Origin: a bacterium
GTDB lineage: Bacteria; Patescibacteriota; CPR2; UBA1875; JAJYID01
Direction of reading: 5' to 3'
Assembly: GCA_021790235.1 (NCBI GenBank)
Contig: JAJYID010000004.1
Span: 1 to 50,279, forward strand
Length of the DNA stretch: 50,279 nucleotides
Position 1 is the stretch's first letter; each line of letters opens with the position of its first letter. The position numbers were made by a program, and so were the translations under genes. Under the pieces are notes generated by a model. That model searched no databases and was not told the origin of the DNA. It saw only the letters and a list, made by a program, of their open reading frames with translations. Positions 5,537 through 28,283 of the stretch are shown here, one piece after another.

Positions 5537-6274
5537 ATGTCCGAAACATGTTTCACAGCAGTAAGGTACGACGATGGTGAGAAACTTTTGGATGTGGCAA
5601 ATGAGTTTTTTAAAAAATATGATTTGTCCCTTGTCGAAGAAAGAATAGGAAACCGTCGGGGGAAATATGCAAGATCTCCCAAACACTATAAGGATCTAGA
5701 AGAATATTACGAAATTCAAGAAAAACAAAGACGAGGCAAAGAACTTTCTTGGACTACAAATTTTTTGTTTTTTGGGAACCCAAGTGATAATTCTGGGTGG
5801 AAAATATTTCTTTACAACGAACCAGTGAGCCCACTACATGGTGTGAAGACCAATGAAAATTTTTCCAAACATGTGTCCTCAAAACTGAATGCAAAATGTA
5901 TAGATTATTCATACTATAGCGTTGTCGATCAGCTGAGATTAAGATGTTTTAGGGACGGAAAATTAACTGACGAGTTGTGCTTCATGTTTGATAATGGAGT
6001 AGATTTTGCATCCGGATTTTTTAAAAAATTTGAAGGAACTAAGGGGACAATAAAGGATTCATGGACGAACGAGCGTTTTGAGGGTAAAGAGGCAGAAGCA
6101 ATCGAAGCAAAACACAAGGAAATCTGGCAAGCTCAATACGATTTTCTAGACAAGGAAGGATTTAACATAGAAAAAATACAATGGGGTTATGATAGTGAAA
6201 CAAACCGGCGGCCAATGTATTTAAAGGGTGGTCCAAGCGCAATACAAAAATTTTTTGCTTCTCAGGCCTTTTAA
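5537..6274 (+). CDS. hypothetical protein (about 245 aa)
   Basis: The ORF track starts at 5522 (TTG). The ATG at 5537 lies 1 nt after the upstream stop. No motif recognised. Confidence 0.55.
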   Translation: MSETCFTAVRYDDGEKLLDVANEFFKKYDLSLVEERIGNRRGKYARSPKHYKDLEEYYEIQEKQRRGKELSWTTNFLFFGNPSDNSGWKIFLYNEPVSPLHGVKTNENFSKHVSSKLNAKCIDYSYYSVVDQLRLRCFRDGKLTDELCFMFDNGVDFASGFFKKFEGTKGTIKDSWTNERFEGKEAEAIEAKHKEIWQAQYDFLDKEGFNIEKIQWGYDSETNRRPMYLKGGPSAIQKFFASQAF

Positions 6275-6519
6275 TCCTTAGTTTAAGCGATTTTGTTCAG
6301 AGATTCTTCCAGCTTATCCAACAGGCTCAAGTTCGCATACTGTACACTTATGACCGCCAGAAACCTAATTTTCTTAATTTTTCTTTGCTGGTGCACTTTT
6401 AATGGTAGTGTTTTTGTGTTATAATTGAGTTCAAAATAAACAGCGGAGGGAGCTTTCGGCTGTTTTTGTTTGGGTGTACATTGAAAATGACATAATCTCA
6501 AAATCTTATTGAAAGCGAG

Positions 6520-7560
6520 GTGAAAGACTTGAAGTATAAACCGATGGACATGGAAAAGTATAATAAGGCTAGAGAACTAAGGAGAAAACTCTGGGGACCA
6601 CAATCCATCGCTAATGAAATCCAAGTTGATGACAGCACTGTCATTAGATGGACTGCTGATATTGCTAAGGAAATATTCGAGAGACGAGTTGAACTAATGA
6701 GGCGGCTTGTCCTGGAGAAGAAATACACCAGGAAAGAAATTTGCGAGAGGTTGTGTATTGGCATGTCTACCCTTTATAAATATACCAATGATATAAGAGA
6801 GGAAAAAAGAGACTATGATTTCCTTGGAAGAGAGGTAGAAAGGTTATTTCTTGAAGGTGAATCAAAAGGGAAAATCAAGAAAAAACTGAATGTTTCCGAG
6901 AGTTTTATCAGGAAACATACAAAACCTCTACAGAAAGATCTCGTAAATGCTGAGCAAGGCGAATACCGAAATGAGCAGGGCGTTTTGTTTGTAGCTTGCA
7001 AGTATCTTGCTGAGTATCTGGATATGAATACTGCTTCTATTTATCCGTCCTTACGGGAGTATGAGGTTCCATACATAGAGCTACTGACATCTAATGAACG
7101 TGTGAGCAGTAATAACGGACGTTTAAAGTTCTATGAGTTCGATAAAGTGTTTGAACTTGTCCCGTCGCTCAAAGAAAGAAAAGGGCGTATAGATGATTTC
7201 AACAATTTATCTGAAAAGCATATTCTTAGGACTAAACCAGAAGATCTGACCGATGAGGAATTCAAGGTTTTATGGGCGCTTCTAGTCTGGAGGAATACAA
7301 AAGACTATTGGCCTCTTCCGGCAAACCTTACCAGCATGTTGAGGGGTATGAGTGCAAAAGACATTTCCCGATGTTTTGCCTCATTAGAGCTCAAACGGTA
7401 TATTACAATCATATACGAGCATAAGAATGCAAACAGTATGAGGAGAATAGTTGTTCACAAGGGTCCGCCGGAACTTATAACTCGGCAGGTCGAGTGTGCT
7501 CATTGTGAACACAAATTCTTTGTTTCCAGGGATTATGTCGAAAATGGGGCTGAGCCGTAG
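6520..7560 (+). CDS. multi-HTH DNA-binding protein with C-terminal CxxC
   Basis: Three successive helix-turn-helix-like segments (STVIRWTADIAKE, MSTLYKYTNDIRE, VSESFIRKHTK), a winged-helix-like region and CAHCEH near the C-terminus. Start is GTG 6520 or ATG 6544. Confidence 0.55.
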   Translation: MKDLKYKPMDMEKYNKARELRRKLWGPQSIANEIQVDDSTVIRWTADIAKEIFERRVELMRRLVLEKKYTRKEICERLCIGMSTLYKYTNDIREEKRDYDFLGREVERLFLEGESKGKIKKKLNVSESFIRKHTKPLQKDLVNAEQGEYRNEQGVLFVACKYLAEYLDMNTASIYPSLREYEVPYIELLTSNERVSSNNGRLKFYEFDKVFELVPSLKERKGRIDDFNNLSEKHILRTKPEDLTDEEFKVLWALLVWRNTKDYWPLPANLTSMLRGMSAKDISRCFASLELKRYITIIYEHKNANSMRRIVVHKGPPELITRQVECAHCEHKFFVSRDYVENGAEP

Positions 7561-20346: not shown

Positions 20347-21749
20347 GTGAAAAAAACTAAGATTATAGCCACTCTTGGGCCATCCTCGGATGACCCAAAA
20401 ATTATGGGAAAATTGATAGATGCGGGAGTCAATATCTTCCGTATCAATTTTTCGCATGCCACAGAAGAAGAAAGAGTTAAGAGGGTAAAAGATCTAAGAA
20501 CAATCGAGAAGACAAGCGGGAAACCGGTAACGATTTTACAGGATCTGCAAGGGCCAAAAATACGTGTCGGCAAGATCGACGGTTCTATTGAATTAACCGA
20601 AGGAAAAGAAATTACTCTCACTATAGATACACCGGCCCATGGCGAAGTTCCTGTCCAATATCAAGGTATAGTTAGCGACGTTGAGAGCGGAAACCGTATT
20701 CTTCTGGTTGATGGGAAAATCGTTCTTGAAGTTATTTCTAAAGACAAGAAAAGATTAAATGCAAAGTCAAAACTGGCGGTGTTTTAAGCTCAAATAAAGG
20801 GATTAACCTGCCGGACTCCAGCATTTCTCTGCCGGCCCTTTCCGAAAAAGATCTCCATGATTTAAAGTTTGGTCTGACTAATGATCTTGACTATGTGGCT
20901 CTTTCATTTGTCAAGTCAGCCGAGGATATTTTGCAACTTAAAAGCATAATCAAAAAAGCAGGGGGAAAGACCAAAGTGATCGCAAAAATCGAGCGTCACG
21001 AGGCAGTGAAAAACATTGATGAGATTATTGAGGCCGCAGATGCGGTTATGGTAGCAAGGGGCGATCTAGGGATCGAAGTTTCTCTGGCCAGTGTTCCGCT
21101 TCTTCAGAAAACGATTATTGAAAGATGTAATGCAGCCGGCAAGCCGGTGATAGTAGCAACCCAAATGTTAGATTCGATGGTGCGGAATCCTGTATCAACT
21201 AGGGCTGAGACATCCGATATCGCAAATGCTATTTTGGATGGGGCTGACGCAGTGATGCTTTCTGATGAAACATCTGTCGGCAAATATCCGATTAATGCAG
21301 TGAAAGTCATGTGCAAGATCGCTTTGACAGTTGAAAAATGGTCTAATGATAGCCAAATTATCATTGGGGAAGACGCAATTAAAAAAATTAATTCAACTTC
21401 AGAAGCAATAAGCAAAAGCGCCTGTAAACTGGCTTCGGAAATTAAAGCCAAAGTGATTATTAATGCAACGGCTCGGGGTAAGACAACTAAAAATGTTTCG
21501 AGATTTCGTCCGCATTGTCCGATAATTTCTGTGACCCACACTTTAAAAATCGCTCGGGAGCTAAATCTGGTTTGGGGAGTTTATCCGTATGTTCTGAAAT
21601 ACAAAACTGTTCGTGAGATGAGCAGACAATCTACGGAAATCGCTAGGGCCCTAAAACTCGTCAAGAAGGGAGACAAACTCGTGATAATCAGCGGTGAGAA
21701 AGTTGGCGTGGAAGGTGGCACTAACATGGTTAAAGTTAAGGAGCTTTAG
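20347..21749 (+). pseudogene. pyk: pyruvate kinase with its reading frame broken near 20740-20755
   Basis: The ORFs 20347..20787 (KIIATLGPSS, NFSHA) and 20895..21749 (MVARGDLGIE...) are the two parts of one pyk. In the -1 frame, 20748-20894 reads KKIKCKVKTGGVLSSNKGINLPDSSISLPALSEKDLHDLKFGL..., which bridges the two parts. Confidence 0.8.
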
Positions 21750-22136: not shown

Positions 22137-22252
22137 CTATCCTCCCCTAGATAGATATGTTTTGGTTTCATAATAAGTATACAACAAAACCTTTAAGCTG
22201 GTAAACGGTTCTGTTTCAAACAAAGGCAGAAAGGTGGTAAAATATTCTGGCT

Positions 22253-23035
22253 ATGGATAAATATATTAAAGATTTAGATAAAATCCTTTCCGATGAATTT
22301 CTAGCGCTTAGGAAAGAAATCGAAGGCCAAAAGCTCGGGGTTCTTTTTTCCGGTGGAGTAGACAGTTCTCTTATCGCAAAATTCGCCGAAGATGCCGGAC
22401 TGCACCCTGTTCTTTATAGTTTCGGTACTGAAAAATCCAAAGATAGGCGGTTTGTTTTTGACTTTGCACGAGATATGAAAATGCCGCTTATTTTTGAAGA
22501 AATTGAAAACAGTGAGATTGAAAACCACATTTCATTTATTAGAAAAGAACTAGTTAAAATCGGCGAGGATCCAAATCCTATGCAAGTCGCTCTTGCGGTC
22601 GGGGTTTATCTAATCGGGAAAAGGGTGAAAGTCGGCGGTATCAAGTTTATGATATGCGGACAAGGGTCTGATGAGCTTTTTGCTGGATATAAGAAATATG
22701 AGGGGTTAAAGGATGAGGATTTGCAAAAATCTTTAGAAAAAGATATTGAATCCGTAATGAGGTCGGACATTGCCCGCGATACTCACATGTTATCTCTTTC
22801 CGGTATAAAACTTTTTGCTCCTTATACGGATAAAACATTTATTGATTACGCACTCAAAATTCCGCTTAAATACAAAGTCTCAGGCGATACAAAAAAAATT
22901 ATAATTCGCAAAGTCGCTGAGAAGCGTGGACTCCCTGGTTATATCTGTAACCGTCCCAAAAATGCCATGCAGTATTCGTCCGGTATACAAAAGGTTATCT
23001 CAAAAGTCTATAAAGCGGAAAGAAAAAATGGATAG
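22253..23035 (+). CDS. standalone asparagine-synthetase-type (AsnB C-terminal) PP-loop ATP-pyrophosphatase domain protein
   Basis: PP-loop SGGVDSS, then GQGSDELFAGY and LFAPYTD...K..IRKVAEKRGLP, typical of the Asn_synthase domain. No N-terminal glutaminase domain (260 aa in total). Confidence 0.75.
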   Translation: MDKYIKDLDKILSDEFLALRKEIEGQKLGVLFSGGVDSSLIAKFAEDAGLHPVLYSFGTEKSKDRRFVFDFARDMKMPLIFEEIENSEIENHISFIRKELVKIGEDPNPMQVALAVGVYLIGKRVKVGGIKFMICGQGSDELFAGYKKYEGLKDEDLQKSLEKDIESVMRSDIARDTHMLSLSGIKLFAPYTDKTFIDYALKIPLKYKVSGDTKKIIIRKVAEKRGLPGYICNRPKNAMQYSSGIQKVISKVYKAERKNG

Positions 23036-24605
23036 ACTGCTTGAAAAAGTAATTCAAGAATCCATTGATCGAAAAATAGTTTCAGATGAAGATTTTCAAG
23101 CTTTAATTAAAAAAAATTTCAAAGGCAAATCTGAGGCGAAGTTTCCTTCAAATATTAAAATAAGGAAACAATACCGGTCCATGATTAATGAAGGAATAAT
23201 ATCGCCAAGCCCGGAACTGGAAAAAATATTGGTTACGAAGAAGATGCGTTCTCTTTCCGGAGTGGCTGTCATCACAGTTTTAACCAAGCCTTGGTCGTGC
23301 CCCGGCAAATGCCTGTACTGTCCGACTCAAGAAAATGTGCCGAAAAGCTATCTTTCAAGCGAGCCGGCAGTGATGCGGGCCATTTTGTGCAACTACGACC
23401 CTTTTAAGCAAGTGAAGGCTAGGCTGGAATCATTGGAGCTAGAAGGGCATCCGACGGACAAAATAGAGCTGATCGTCATTGGCGGAACATTTTCGGTTTT
23501 GCCGGGAGATTATCAGGAAGAATACATAAAATTATGCCTCGATGCATTGAACGGTACAAAAAGCAGAGATTTAAACGAGGCAAAAGTTCAGAACGAAACA
23601 TCCAGACATCGCCTAGTCGGGCTGACTCTCGAGACGAGACCGGATTATATTACGAAAAAAGAAGTTGAGCGTATGCGGTATCTGGGCGCAACGAGGGTAG
23701 AGCTGGGTGTGCAGTCTATATTTGACGATATTTTAGAAACTAACAAGCGAGGCCACAAAGTTGAGGCAACAATTCGAGCGACAAAACTCCTGAAAGATGC
23801 GGGACTGAAAATCTGCTACCATATGATGCCGAACTTGCCCGGTTCTGATTTGAAAAAAGACTTGAAAATGTTTAAGGTGATATTTTCCGATCCACGATTT
23901 CAGCCTGATTATATAAAAATTTACCCTTGCATGGTGACAAAGGGTTCGGAACTTTATGAACTTTGGAAAGCCGGAAAGTATAGGCCTTACGCCGACGAGG
24001 AGTTGGAAGGTCTGATTTGTGAAATTAAAAAGGTAGTGCCGTACTACGAGCGGATTATGAGGCTGATTCGCGACATTCCGTCCACTGATATTGAAGCCGG
24101 TTCCAAGATTTCCAATTTACGGCAAAATGTACAGAAAAAATTACGATCAGAAGGTACAAACTGTAGATGTATTCGTTGCCGGGAGGCAGGACTGAACATG
24201 TCAAATGTAAAAGGTAAAATGTCAAATGTTAAGCTATTTAAGGAAGAATATAAGGCTTCTGGTGGAGTTGAAATTTTCTTGAGTTATGAAGCTGAGGATA
24301 GAAGTATCCTGTTTGCTCTATTACGCTTAAGATTGTCGGGTGAAACCTATTTATCAGAATTAAAAGAAACGGCTATTATTCGTGAAGTCCATACCTATGG
24401 CCAGCAGATAAAAATTGGTAAAAGGGGTGATACCCAACACAAGGGATTGGGCAAAAAACTTATTTTCAAAGCCGAAAAATTAGCCGGCGATAATGGTTAT
24501 AAAAAGATCGCCGTTATTGCCGGTATTGGTACCCGAGATTATTACCGAAAGTTCGGCTATATGCTACATGGCGAGTATATGGTCAAAGTGTTTGAACTGA
24601 ATTAG
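23028..24605 (+). CDS. elp3: Elp3-type radical-SAM/GNAT tRNA uridine(34) modification enzyme
   Basis: Radical-SAM cluster CPGKCLYC, the Elp3-like core (ETRPDYI, ELGVQS, KIYPC) and a C-terminal GNAT motif HKGLGKKL. Start taken at ATG 23028 (MDRLLEKV), overlapping the upstream stop by 8 nt. The ORF-track start at 22926 lies inside the upstream gene. Confidence 0.85.
   Translation: MDRLLEKVIQESIDRKIVSDEDFQALIKKNFKGKSEAKFPSNIKIRKQYRSMINEGIISPSPELEKILVTKKMRSLSGVAVITVLTKPWSCPGKCLYCPTQENVPKSYLSSEPAVMRAILCNYDPFKQVKARLESLELEGHPTDKIELIVIGGTFSVLPGDYQEEYIKLCLDALNGTKSRDLNEAKVQNETSRHRLVGLTLETRPDYITKKEVERMRYLGATRVELGVQSIFDDILETNKRGHKVEATIRATKLLKDAGLKICYHMMPNLPGSDLKKDLKMFKVIFSDPRFQPDYIKIYPCMVTKGSELYELWKAGKYRPYADEELEGLICEIKKVVPYYERIMRLIRDIPSTDIEAGSKISNLRQNVQKKLRSEGTNCRCIRCREAGLNMSNVKGKMSNVKLFKEEYKASGGVEIFLSYEAEDRSILFALLRLRLSGETYLSELKETAIIREVHTYGQQIKIGKRGDTQHKGLGKKLIFKAEKLAGDNGYKKIAVIAGIGTRDYYRKFGYMLHGEYMVKVFELN
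24198..24233 (+). repeat. in-frame tandem direct repeat ATGTCAAATGT(N10)ATGTCAAATGT inside elp3
   Basis: Encodes MSNVKGKMSNVK between the radical-SAM and GNAT parts. Confidence 0.7.
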
Positions 24606-24691: not shown

Positions 24692-25033
24692 ATGGGTTGT
24701 CTTGATAACATAAACAACCTGGATTTGACAAAAAAATCAGATTTGCAGACTTGCCCTATGCTCTGGTGTGACTCGAAGCTTGTTTATCTGGTGGAACGCT
24801 ATCAGATCAATGACATGGAGTGGAAGGTGACGCTACTGTGCCCCGATTGTTGGACAAAGAGAGAACTAACGGTTGATCGTGAATCGGTACGTCAACTTCT
24901 CAAAAATAATCGTCTAGGTCGGGAGAAGCTTATGAAACAGCTGGACGAAATGCAGAAAAAGAATATGACAGATGAGACAGATAAGTTTATTACTGCTCTA
25001 GAGAATGATCATATCCTACCTATCGATTTTTAG
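24692..25033 (+). CDS. small zinc-ribbon protein (113 aa)
   Basis: CPMLWCDSK...(24 aa)...CPDC followed by a charged helical tail. GGGAGGTG SD. Terminator downstream. Confidence 0.6.
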   Translation: MGCLDNINNLDLTKKSDLQTCPMLWCDSKLVYLVERYQINDMEWKVTLLCPDCWTKRELTVDRESVRQLLKNNRLGREKLMKQLDEMQKKNMTDETDKFITALENDHILPIDF

Positions 25034-25076: not shown

Positions 25077-25105
25077 AGAGAGCCCTTCGGGGCTTTCTTT
25101 TTTCT
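25077..25105 (+). terminator. rho-independent terminator
   Basis: AGAGAGCCC-ttcg-GGGCTTTCT followed by a T-run. Confidence 0.75.
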
Positions 25106-25271: not shown

Positions 25272-25613
25272 ATGAGACGAGTGGCGGAACATCTGGAAGA
25301 TCTGAAAGGTATTGATATGTGTCCCATATGTGGATCGAAAGCCATCAGAATGACCGGCAGCCGTAGGAATGATCAGGATCCAGTCTGGATGATCTTCTTC
25401 TTTTGTCATAACTGCGAAGATCCTTACCCGCGCGGTCCGGTAATTTCAGAACTGAAGGCGGAAATTGCAAGGAAACATCTGAGTGAGGAAGGATGTGTCT
25501 CAGATCGGGCATTAAAAGAGATGATGGCAGATAAGGAAGAGCTTACAAAATCTCGTGAGAAAGAGGAGATATTGACACTTGGGATGATGTTTCAAGAATT
25601 AACCCGGAGGTGA
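25272..25613 (+). CDS. small zinc-ribbon protein (113 aa), distant paralogue of 24692..25033
   Basis: CPICGSK...(23 aa)...CHNC followed by a charged helical tail. AAGGAGGT SD. 11-bp hairpin at 25624-25648. Confidence 0.6.
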   Translation: MRRVAEHLEDLKGIDMCPICGSKAIRMTGSRRNDQDPVWMIFFFCHNCEDPYPRGPVISELKAEIARKHLSEEGCVSDRALKEMMADKEELTKSREKEEILTLGMMFQELTRR

Positions 25614-27803: not shown

Positions 27804-28283
27804 ATGCGTGATAATACATGGCTTTTTCAAAAACTAGATGAGATTTGGGATGAGAATTTTCCGGATATCCCACAGCACAATGATGTCATTATTAAGTTTG
27901 GCCGGAAAGCGCGTCAAAGATTAGGATCCATCAAGCAGGAGGCAAAAACTGCTCGCGATCTACTCAATAAAAATCGCAAAACTATCATTACGATAAATGG
28001 GCTGTTTAGAGATTTGGTCGTTCCGGAATACGTGATTACGGCCACAATCGCTCATGAGATGTGCCATTACGCGCATGGGTTTAGCTCGCCACTTGATCAA
28101 AAATTCTCAAATCCTCATCAGGGAGGGGTTGTAACAAAGGAAATGAAAGCGAGAGGATTTACCAAAGAACTGCAATTACAAAAAAAATGGCTAAAAGACG
28201 TTTGGCCTAAGTATTTGGAAGAAAAAATGCCATATAAACCGAGACAAAGGCGCAGAAGGAAAATGGTTATAAAGTGGATTTAG
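27804..28283 (+). CDS. SprT-like/DUF45-like zinc metallopeptidase
   Basis: HExxH motif in TIAHEMCHYAHG. Small size with a basic C-terminus. Confidence 0.55.
   Translation: MRDNTWLFQKLDEIWDENFPDIPQHNDVIIKFGRKARQRLGSIKQEAKTARDLLNKNRKTIITINGLFRDLVVPEYVITATIAHEMCHYAHGFSSPLDQKFSNPHQGGVVTKEMKARGFTKELQLQKKWLKDVWPKYLEEKMPYKPRQRRRRKMVIKWI

Follow-up and report, generated by a model that had tools for sequence, protein, structure and literature searches.

Elp3 carboxymethylates the wobble uridine (U34) of tRNA, as has been shown for archaeal Elp3, and Trm9 methylates the carboxylate of the resulting 5-carboxymethyluridine (cm5U) to give 5-methoxycarbonylmethyluridine (mcm5U). The Elongator/Elp3 pathway has two main end products at this position, and one of them is the corresponding amide, 5-carbamoylmethyluridine (ncm5U). 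Here, we describe a bacterial locus that may encode the amide-forming step beside Elp3. It lies in a 50,279-nucleotide stretch of DNA (hereafter "the window", meaning the whole of the analyzed stretch; contig JAJYID010000004.1 of assembly GCA_021790235.1) from the CPR2 lineage of Patescibacteria, in which the gene for a 260-aa AsnB-like protein, a stand-alone asparagine-synthase domain, overlaps the start of an Elp3 gene. From the sequence alone, the original prediction had proposed that this pair could make ncm5U, with the AsnB-like protein adenylating and amidating the cm5U carboxylate. Our analysis supports this proposal on sequence grounds, based on genomic linkage, gene fusion, mutual exclusivity with a Trm9-like methyltransferase in the same slot and a Gln-for-Glu replacement in the active site, and the AsnB-like protein emerges as a strong candidate for the enzyme turning cm5U into ncm5U.

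A review of tRNA processing from 2023 assigns no enzyme to the formation of ncm5U (PMC10275265), and trm9 mutants accumulate ncm5U (PMC10275265; PMC3110198). The original prediction had regarded the conversion of cm5U to ncm5U as unassigned, and our literature search agrees, as it returned no paper on a biosynthetic enzyme for ncm5U or 5-cyanomethyluridine (cnm5U) and none that ties Elp3 to an asparagine-synthase-like protein. According to a 2026 study, Elp3 hydrolyzes acetyl-CoA and channels the free acetate to its radical-SAM (S-adenosylmethionine) site, and the cm5U formed retains both carboxylate oxygens, that is, a free carboxylate with no thioester left (PMC13315578). Because no activated thioester survives Elp3, amide formation needs a separate activation step, for which an adenylating enzyme fits.

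The closest studied relatives of the partner protein are the Elp3 enzymes of Dehalococcoides mccartyi and Methanocaldococcus infernus, which share with it a single polypeptide of radical-SAM and GNAT domains, membership of TIGR01211 and the three-Cys motif, whereas the patescibacterial Elp3 described here is coupled or fused to a tailoring enzyme. The window Elp3 matched TIGR01211 end to end (608.9 bits against a cut-off of 350) and the Pfam models Radical_SAM, Radical_SAM_C and, weakly, a C-terminal GNAT domain (18-19 bits), and the cysteines C91, C95 and C98 were invariant in 12 Elp3 sequences. The original description of this protein, with its CPGKCLYC motif and C-terminal GNAT domain, is thus borne out, the GNAT match being weak, but the accompanying statement that bacterial Elp3 is rare does not hold for Patescibacteria. 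At E <= 1e-50, a homology search returned at least 7,999 Elp3 proteins, and among those with names many came from this phylum. A 2020 review had named bacterial Elp3 only in Dehalococcoides, reporting no evidence for cm5U-type modifications (xcm5U) in bacteria and leaving Patescibacteria unmentioned (PMC7663514).

The AsnB-like protein resembles the synthetase domain of AsnB and ASNS in its fold, its PP-loop (SGGxDS) and its conserved catalytic residues, and would be expected to adenylate a -CH2-COO- group and then amidate it with ammonia. It differs in having no glutaminase domain, in carrying Gln in place of Glu348/364 and Asp in place of K376, in its Elp3-bound gene, and in its proposed substrate, which is a tRNA-bound nucleoside carboxylate and not free aspartate. 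The likeness to Trm9 (with Trm112) and the methyltransferase domain of ALKBH8 is of another kind, comprising the proposed substrate (the cm5U34 carboxylate), the head-to-head slot beside Elp3 and the N-terminal fusion to Elp3. The two folds are unrelated, however, and Trm9 performs SAM-dependent O-methylation, whereas ATP-dependent amidation is proposed for the AsnB-like protein; the two were mutually exclusive in the sampled loci. NadE, Dph6 and QueC also use PP-loop ATP pyrophosphatase chemistry to activate a carboxylate for attack by ammonia, and the modification completed by Dph6 (diphthine-ammonia ligase) is likewise on a macromolecule that takes part in translation, but these enzymes belong to other PP-loop subfamilies (template modeling score, TM, of ~0.5 for NadE). 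Finally, beta-lactam synthetase, CarA, TsnB9 and the lasso cyclases share the synthetase fold and acyl-adenylate chemistry, but keep an N-terminal domain, whether vestigial or still functional, rely on nucleophiles that are intramolecular or unusual, and are encoded in biosynthetic clusters; none of these traits holds for the AsnB-like protein.

A 26-sequence alignment of the AsnB-like family, searched against a single genome from each species, yielded 271 relatives, of which the best 80 were examined, with Elp3 located by tblastn. Seventeen of these 80 loci constituted a bacterial clade from CPR2, Microgenomates, Gottesmanbacteria, Roizmanbacteria, other Patescibacteria, Anaerolineae and some metagenome-assembled genomes (MAGs) labeled Gammaproteobacteria, the last clustering with Roizmanbacteria. 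Elp3 was adjacent or within ~0.7 kb in 15 of the 16 testable loci of this clade (32-83% identity); L015, which is 219 nt from a contig end, was left out of the count. Three further relatives (59%, 42% and 32% identity) were also linked to Elp3, two of them head-to-head and one at a distance of 1.2 kb across three small open reading frames (ORFs). The two genes were arranged head-to-head in the majority of loci, as a co-directional overlap in the window, L090 and L010, and with small ORFs between them in L008 and L016. Because the arrangements differ among loci, the association points to selection rather than inherited synteny. As originally read, the TAG stop of the AsnB-like ORF in the window (23033-23035) lies over the start of Elp3 (ATG at 23028). 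Within the clade to which the window belongs, the overlap is 8 nt in both the window and L090 (ATGAATAG in L090) and 17 nt in L010; since this geometry recurs in the two relatives, the 8-nt overlap is not a one-off, and it suggests translational coupling of the predicted pair.

The two proteins also occur as one polypeptide. P0136 and P0241 (816 aa) are in-frame AsnB-like::Elp3 fusions, in which an AsnB-like part (residues 1-265 in P0136) is followed by Elp3. Three near-identical sequences share the junction KSYNKV-MEDII, which was seen on at least four contigs of different assemblies, and because of this recurrence the fusion is unlikely to be a sequencing error. No second, independent AsnB-like::Elp3 fusion was found among the long matches scanned with the fusion protein as the query. 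In a neighbor-joining tree, the bacterial Elp3-linked AsnB-like proteins formed one group, and their Elp3 partners fell into one clade of 14 loci, all AsnB-linked, together with the clade of the window and a few singletons. The original prediction had called for a survey of gene neighborhoods, and the adjacency, the varied arrangements and the fusion together show the linkage for which it had asked.

A second sample was drawn from the side of Elp3 and comprised 80 metagenome loci, without taxonomic labels, whose Elp3 is 44-72% identical to that of the window (the best 80 of at least 600); named Falkowbacteria, Nealsonbacteria and Parcubacteria fall among these loci in the tree. By tblastn, 64 of them carried a Trm9-like methyltransferase gene and four an AsnB-like gene (L090, L141, L116, which is partial at a contig edge, and L101, a weak and convergent match). 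None carried both, and 12 carried neither, including four with less than 700 nt of upstream sequence. Conversely, the Trm9-like gene was absent from all 26 AsnB-like loci checked, the window, L015 and L020 included. One methyltransferase-like match in L016 (Anaerolineae) was rejected as Trm9-like, as it is a generic class-I match to the SAM-binding core only and lies beyond a major facilitator superfamily (MFS) transporter.

In the 64 loci (within L092-L168), the Trm9-like gene lies nearly always head-to-head upstream of Elp3 with a gap of 0-350 nt, and encodes a protein of ~230 aa with a DxGCGNGR motif (for example, L103:5282-5971 on the minus strand beside Elp3 at 6001-7557 on the plus strand). 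A fused form exists here as well. Searching a 50%-identity representative library with the AsnB-like::Elp3 fusion protein yielded other long Elp3 proteins, among them P0255 (765 aa, L171:5001-7298, on four contigs), in which an N-terminal class-I methyltransferase is joined to Elp3. The best solved relative of this domain is the Trm9 subunit of Yarrowia Trm9-Trm112 (5CM2_Z; E 2.8e-10, next 1.8e-5), and a profile built from 17 of the methyltransferases likewise placed this Trm9 at the top, with a full-length match (E 5e-26). NCBIfam offered no model specific to these Trm9-like methyltransferases. The choice of partner can differ between close Elp3 relatives, because L091, with an Elp3 71% identical to that of the window, carries a Trm9-like fragment upstream instead of an AsnB-like gene.

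Since the AsnB-like and Trm9-like genes share both a slot and two architectures, and are mutually exclusive, the substrate of the AsnB-like protein would be the cm5U carboxylate; this is the strongest argument for our reading. We infer from these gene arrangements that the two proteins are alternative tailoring modules for that carboxylate. The AsnB-like gene was both linked to Elp3 and mutually exclusive with the Trm9-like gene, and these are the features by which we propose an Elp3-associated cm5U amide synthetase family.

Other genes and fusions were observed around Elp3. A staphylococcal-nuclease-like protein is encoded near the pair in nine loci (L003:7879-8424, L012, L013, L017, L018, L019, L024, L034 and L039) and a His_Phos_1 histidine phosphatase in five (L001:6790-7368, L017, L019, L020:9334-9954 and L024), including L020, which has no Elp3; SecA flanks Elp3 in six loci. 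These recurrent neighbors may reflect only shared synteny. In L170, at a distance of two genes on the upstream side of the fusion and with guanylate kinase between, lies a gene of the PF04072 leucine-carboxyl-methyltransferase family (L170:687-1523), which was rejected as a partner as it is absent from the recurrent neighbor clusters. Further Elp3 proteins of composite architecture (P0292, P0243 and P0332) were a HAD-hydrolase::Elp3 fusion of 829 aa, an Elp3::NUDIX fusion of 640 aa and an 850-aa Elp3 with a DUF559 endonuclease-like insertion.

We further analyzed the AsnB-like protein itself. Sequence and Pfam confirmed the original reading of a 260-aa ORF with SGGVDSS and GQGSDELFAGY motifs and no glutaminase: the protein belongs to Asn_synthase (PF00733; 123.3 bits against a cut-off of 21, E 2.4e-35), and the Pfam scan detected no GATase (class-II glutaminase) domain; the chain begins ~25 residues ahead of the PP-loop. 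Equivalog models scored below their cut-offs (TIGR01536, 122.6 against 267.1; NF006949, 102.4 against 499). The AlphaFold (AF2) model has a predicted local distance difference test score (pLDDT) of 93.4 and a predicted TM score (pTM) of 0.90, and its top Foldseek matches were the synthetase domains of Escherichia coli AsnB and human ASNS (TM 0.84-0.85; 1CT9 and 6GQ3), followed by CarA, beta-lactam synthetase and TsnB9, and then by LarE, TtuA and NAD synthetase at TM ~0.4-0.5. A profile search of PDB sequences gave a ranking in agreement with that of Foldseek.

Relative to AsnB (1CT9), the PP-loop S234-S240 is kept as S33-S39, and D351, E352, Y357, D384, R387, K429 and the catalytic K449 are kept as D140, E141, Y146, D172, R175, K215 and K236, whereas E348 is altered to Q137 and K376 to D164. 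Across 26 relatives, S33, G35, D37, S38 and S39 of the PP-loop and K236, A238, Q240, Y241, S242 and G244 of the C-terminal motif were invariant; no Cys was invariant in this alignment. Wherever a regular expression located the motif (72 of 120 homologues), the position of AsnB Glu348/ASNS Glu364 was Gln; the pattern-missed homologues that were inspected read GQGP, also with Gln, and every locus ORF carried Gln except degenerate copies in L088 and L116. In ASNS, this Glu364 is conserved across known asparagine synthetases, and the E364Q and E364A variants are inactive with Asp, ATP and NH4Cl (PMC6748925). Because the essential Glu is replaced by Gln, and E364Q inactivates ASNS, the AsnB-like family is unlikely to make asparagine. 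The two exceptions (L088:9953-12374 and L116:4-417) are Elp3-adjacent AsnB-like genes that read SANGADELF and TATGLDALF, respectively, in place of the GQG signature; the L088 copy, on a contig labeled "uncultured archaeon", also lacks the RD motif and overlaps Elp3 by 11 nt. They are either divergent or decaying members of the family.

In the mechanism that we propose, Elp3 would use SAM and acetyl-CoA, via free acetate, to carboxymethylate U34 at C5, and the carboxylate of the resulting cm5U would be left free; this activity is carried over to the window Elp3 by homology with the archaeal enzyme. The AsnB-like protein would bind Mg-ATP through its PP-loop and adenylate the -CH2-COO- group of cm5U with release of pyrophosphate, and free ammonia would then attack the acyl-adenylate to yield ncm5U34 and AMP. 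The cm5 -CH2-COO- group is locally shaped as the side chain of aspartate, and its adenylation followed by ammonia would give this product. As the genes are overlapping or fused, the AsnB-like protein and Elp3 may act as a 1:1 complex on one tRNA. In sister lineages, a Trm9-like methyltransferase beside Elp3 would yield mcm5U instead. We consider it highly probable that the AsnB-like protein acts on the Elp3 product by adenylating its carboxylate, and we favor, with less assurance, ncm5U34 made with ammonia by ATP-dependent amidation of cm5U34 as the product.

Several observations weigh against this interpretation. L020, in the bacterial clade, lacks an Elp3 gene in both the 10 kb upstream and the 3 kb downstream, and its neighbors are a histidine phosphatase and RmuC. 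An AsnB-like partner accompanied just 4 of the 80 Elp3 genes (~5%) in the Elp3-first sample, which makes the AsnB-like gene an accessory in certain lineages of Elp3 rather than a universal companion. About 60 archaeal homologues are not adjacent to Elp3, their recurrent neighbors being uninformative housekeeping genes (purB, a Hel308-type helicase and a histone deacetylase, HDAC). In the active site, the equivalents of D351, E352, D384 and R387, which line the aspartate pocket of AsnB, are retained, which would not obviously be expected for a nucleoside substrate, and one subgroup reads GQGPD[IV]L, without the E352 equivalent. The Trm9-like identity of the alternative partner rests on genomic context and on a moderate margin in score (94 bits for Trm9, with generic methyltransferases from 82 bits down). 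Lastly, the ncm5U product and the ammonia nucleophile are steps that we infer.

Among the other explanations considered, the one that survives best shares the adenylation of the cm5U carboxylate and differs in what follows, and we regard it as fairly unlikely. In one version, the acyl-adenylate would react not with ammonia but with another amine, such as an amino acid, methylamine or a polyamine, to give an undescribed N-substituted ncm5U. The AsnB ammonia tunnel lacks a counterpart here, as there is no glutaminase domain, and judging from this domain content solvent may be able to reach the nucleophile site; in addition, the structural neighbors include TsnB9, beta-lactam synthetase and CarA, AsnB-fold enzymes that use nucleophiles of other kinds. 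However, ammonia is indicated by those relatives whose glutaminase domain, with its Cys nucleophile, is intact. The archaeal proteins P0033 and P0073 have an N-terminal class-II glutaminase starting MCGIAG, while others have degenerate starts (MSG or MAG), and because some archaeal members keep this domain, ammonia transfer appears to be the ancestral chemistry of the family.

In the other version, a second ATP-dependent step would dehydrate the amide to the nitrile cnm5U, as QueC does in forming preQ0. Both cnm5U and its 2-thio derivative (cnm5s2U) occur at archaeal U34, with no biosynthesis paper found in our literature search, and the AsnB-like family is abundant in archaea. QueC, which proceeds to the nitrile, has a Zn-binding Cys cluster, but no obvious counterpart to it exists in the AsnB-like protein, and QueC-type chemistry is disfavored because no Cys is invariant in the 26 sequences. 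The QueC model PF06508 gave no match at E <= 0.01 in the window protein and, in relatives, only sub-threshold ones of 15-21 bits (cut-off 22) that covered no more than the PP-loop region; matches of relatives to PF24167 (DUF7411), QueC, NAD_synthase and tRNA_Me_trans were set aside as uninformative PP-loop cross-matches. We know of no AsnB-fold nitrile synthase, and the archaea named in the cnm5U papers were absent among the named matches, which form a top-match list and not a survey.

It is improbable that the AsnB-like protein is tied to Elp3 yet acts elsewhere than on the cm5 side chain, for example on another position of U34 (2-thiolation) or in the modification or regulation of Elp3 itself. 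PP-loop ATPases do include the 2-thiouridine (s2U34) thiolases NcsA, Ctu1 and MnmA, which act on the same nucleotide as Elp3, and weak sub-threshold Pfam matches to tRNA_Me_trans, ThiI and QueC were seen at the PP-loop; one homologue from Thorarchaeota adjoins a gene for SAMP2. Against thiolation, the lack of an invariant Cys leaves no basis for Fe-S or persulfide chemistry, the fold matches to TtuA (TM ~0.42-0.48) and LarE (TM 0.4-0.5) are poor compared with 0.84 for AsnB, and AsnB-specific catalytic residues, including K449, are conserved; we rejected the thiolase reading on the missing Cys and the poor TtuA/LarE fold match. The mutual exclusivity with the Trm9-like gene points instead to the carboxylate as the common target.

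An ordinary ammonia-dependent asparagine synthetase without a glutaminase, its position beside Elp3 being meaningless, is more improbable still. The best sequence and structure matches are indeed to AsnB/ASNS, most residues of the aspartate pocket are kept, and relatives are annotated "asparagine synthase" in their sources. However, the Gln-for-Glu replacement corresponds to the inactive E364Q variant of ASNS, the equivalog scores are far below their cut-offs, and asparagine metabolism cannot explain adjacency to Elp3 in 15 of 16 loci, the in-frame fusion or the Trm9-like exclusivity; it was the Gln-for-Glu replacement, along with linkage to Elp3, that led us to reject this reading. An AsnB-fold natural-product enzyme (lasso cyclase, beta-lactam synthetase, carbapenam synthetase or macrolactam cyclase), of which the original prediction had named the lasso-cyclase-like and beta-lactam-synthetase-like forms, has a negligible probability and was discarded in view of domain architecture, scores and gene neighborhood. 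CarA and beta-lactam synthetase do rank high in the structural comparison, but only through their C-terminal halves (TMt 0.41-0.44), the weak match to the macrolactam cyclase model NF033561 reached 21.1 bits against a cut-off of 300, the N-terminal domain of such enzymes is missing from this single 260-aa domain, the constant partner is Elp3, and the scanned neighbors were housekeeping or unmatched genes with no lasso protease or cluster gene, no dedicated search for a precursor peptide having been made.

Whether the amide synthetase role proposed for the Elp3-linked bacterial proteins extends to the archaeal relatives is a separate matter. That the whole GQG subfamily (Gln-for-Glu and K-x-A-x-Q-Y-S-S-G), archaea included, is the cm5U amidotransferase of the Elp3 pathway across prokaryotes seems doubtful to us: because the archaeal homologues are not adjacent to Elp3, orthology of function across the whole family is unproven and the archaeal extension is speculative. 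A search for a tRNA-related partner among the archaeal neighbors returned just purB, the Hel308-type helicase, HDAC and local Methanomassiliicoccales synteny. Were the extension true, the archaeal GQG members would supply ncm5U, possibly as a precursor of cnm5U or cnm5s2U, and the eukaryotic proteins ASNSD1 and YML096W, which we take to be uncharacterized look-alikes of the GQG subfamily, would become prime candidates for the eukaryotic ncm5U enzyme. Our literature search found no paper that ties ASNSD1 or YML096W to tRNA.

Some features of the archaeal loci were observed in their own right. The purB gene (adenylosuccinate lyase) recurs beside the GQG-family gene in 21 loci within L026-L089 (for example, L046:6009-7493), in a neighborhood spanning Bathyarchaeia, Nitrososphaeria, Methanocella and one Methanobacteriota MAG. 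In a single case, a Thorarchaeota homologue lies tail-to-tail with a gene for the ubiquitin-like protein SAMP2 (L007:6901-7089), a sulfur carrier for archaeal tRNA U34 thiolation. In L065, L068, L075 and L081, binned as Lachnospiraceae, Bacteroides ovatus, Bifidobacteriaceae and Ruminococcus, the AsnB-like gene and its flanks are nearly identical to those of Methanomethylophilaceae/Methanomassiliicoccales, and these loci are probably archaeal contigs mis-binned in gut MAGs.

The features of the window locus are listed in Table 1. The AsnB-like gene, Elp3 and the small 113-aa ORF downstream likely form one transcription unit, judging from the layout: no terminator-like site was present in the interval between Elp3 and this ORF, the first one lying at the downstream hairpin, and L090 has a 64%-identical copy of the ORF at the same position. 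The nearest relatives of both the AsnB-like protein and Elp3 come from CPR2/Patescibacteria assemblies, and the neighboring genes in the window are bacterial housekeeping genes (PrmC, ArgRS, PheT, L,D-transpeptidase, GyrB, GyrA, CTP synthase and pyruvate kinase).

Table 1. Features of the AsnB-like/Elp3 locus, in positions of the window
Feature	Position	Strand	Basis or remark
Promoter-like TTCAAA-17-TAAAAT with TG extension	22215..22243	+	Consensus scan 9/12, weak alone
AsnB-like synthetase-domain protein, 260 aa, pI 9.1, proposed cm5U34-tRNA:ammonia ligase (AMP-forming)	22253..23035	+	Pfam: Asn_synthase only
PP-loop SGGVDSS, residues 33-39, ATP pyrophosphatase motif	22349..22369	+	Aligned to AsnB S234-S240
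GQGSDELFAGY, residues 136-146 (contains Gln137)	22658..22690	+	Alignment to 1CT9
C-terminal motif RPKNAMQYSSGIQK, residues 234-247 (contains Lys236)	22952..22993	+	Alignment to 1CT9
8-nt overlap ATGGATAG, Elp3 ATG inside the AsnB-like stop region	23028..23035	+	Direct reading
Elp3, 525 aa, radical-SAM + GNAT, predicted tRNA U34 carboxymethylase	23028..24605	+	TIGR01211
CPGKCLYC, three-Cys radical-SAM [4Fe-4S] motif, Elp3 residues 91-98	23298..23321	+	Sequence
113-aa CxxC...CxxC zinc-ribbon-like ORF, possible third operon gene	24692..25033	+	No Pfam/NCBIfam match
Terminator-like hairpin, 9-bp stem, 5 GC pairs, then TTTTTTC	25077..25098	+	Probable transcription-unit end

Three further observations concern the surroundings of the locus. 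A second 113-aa CxxC...CxxC ORF (25272-25613), weakly similar to the one at 24692-25033 and without a family match, has a 77%-identical counterpart in the close relative L010. The pyruvate kinase gene is split into two ORFs (20347-20787 and 20895-21749), with its sequence changing frame at ~20770, the cause being either a single frameshift, which would make the gene a pseudogene, or an error in the assembly. Downstream of CTP synthase, a 159-aa ORF (27804-28283) encodes an HExxH motif with sub-threshold matches to SprT-like and metallopeptidase-toxin models.

Taken at the level of gene content, our survey shows that Patescibacteria widely use what appears to be an xcm5U34 pathway of the archaeal/eukaryotic type, typically as a pair of Elp3 and a Trm9-like protein. 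This pairing suggests a putative mcm5U34 pathway in these bacteria, of which our literature search found no description. The distribution of partners further shows that lineages switch between a predicted ester-forming (Trm9-like) and a predicted amide-forming (AsnB-like) tailoring module. The step from cm5U to ncm5U has been without an assigned enzyme since at least 2011, and the AsnB-like protein provides a concrete candidate for it. As a small, soluble-looking and confidently modeled protein of 260 aa that comes with its own Elp3, it makes the hypothesis directly testable, and if our reading holds, a known enzyme fold would gain a new class of substrate, a tRNA-bound nucleoside carboxylate.

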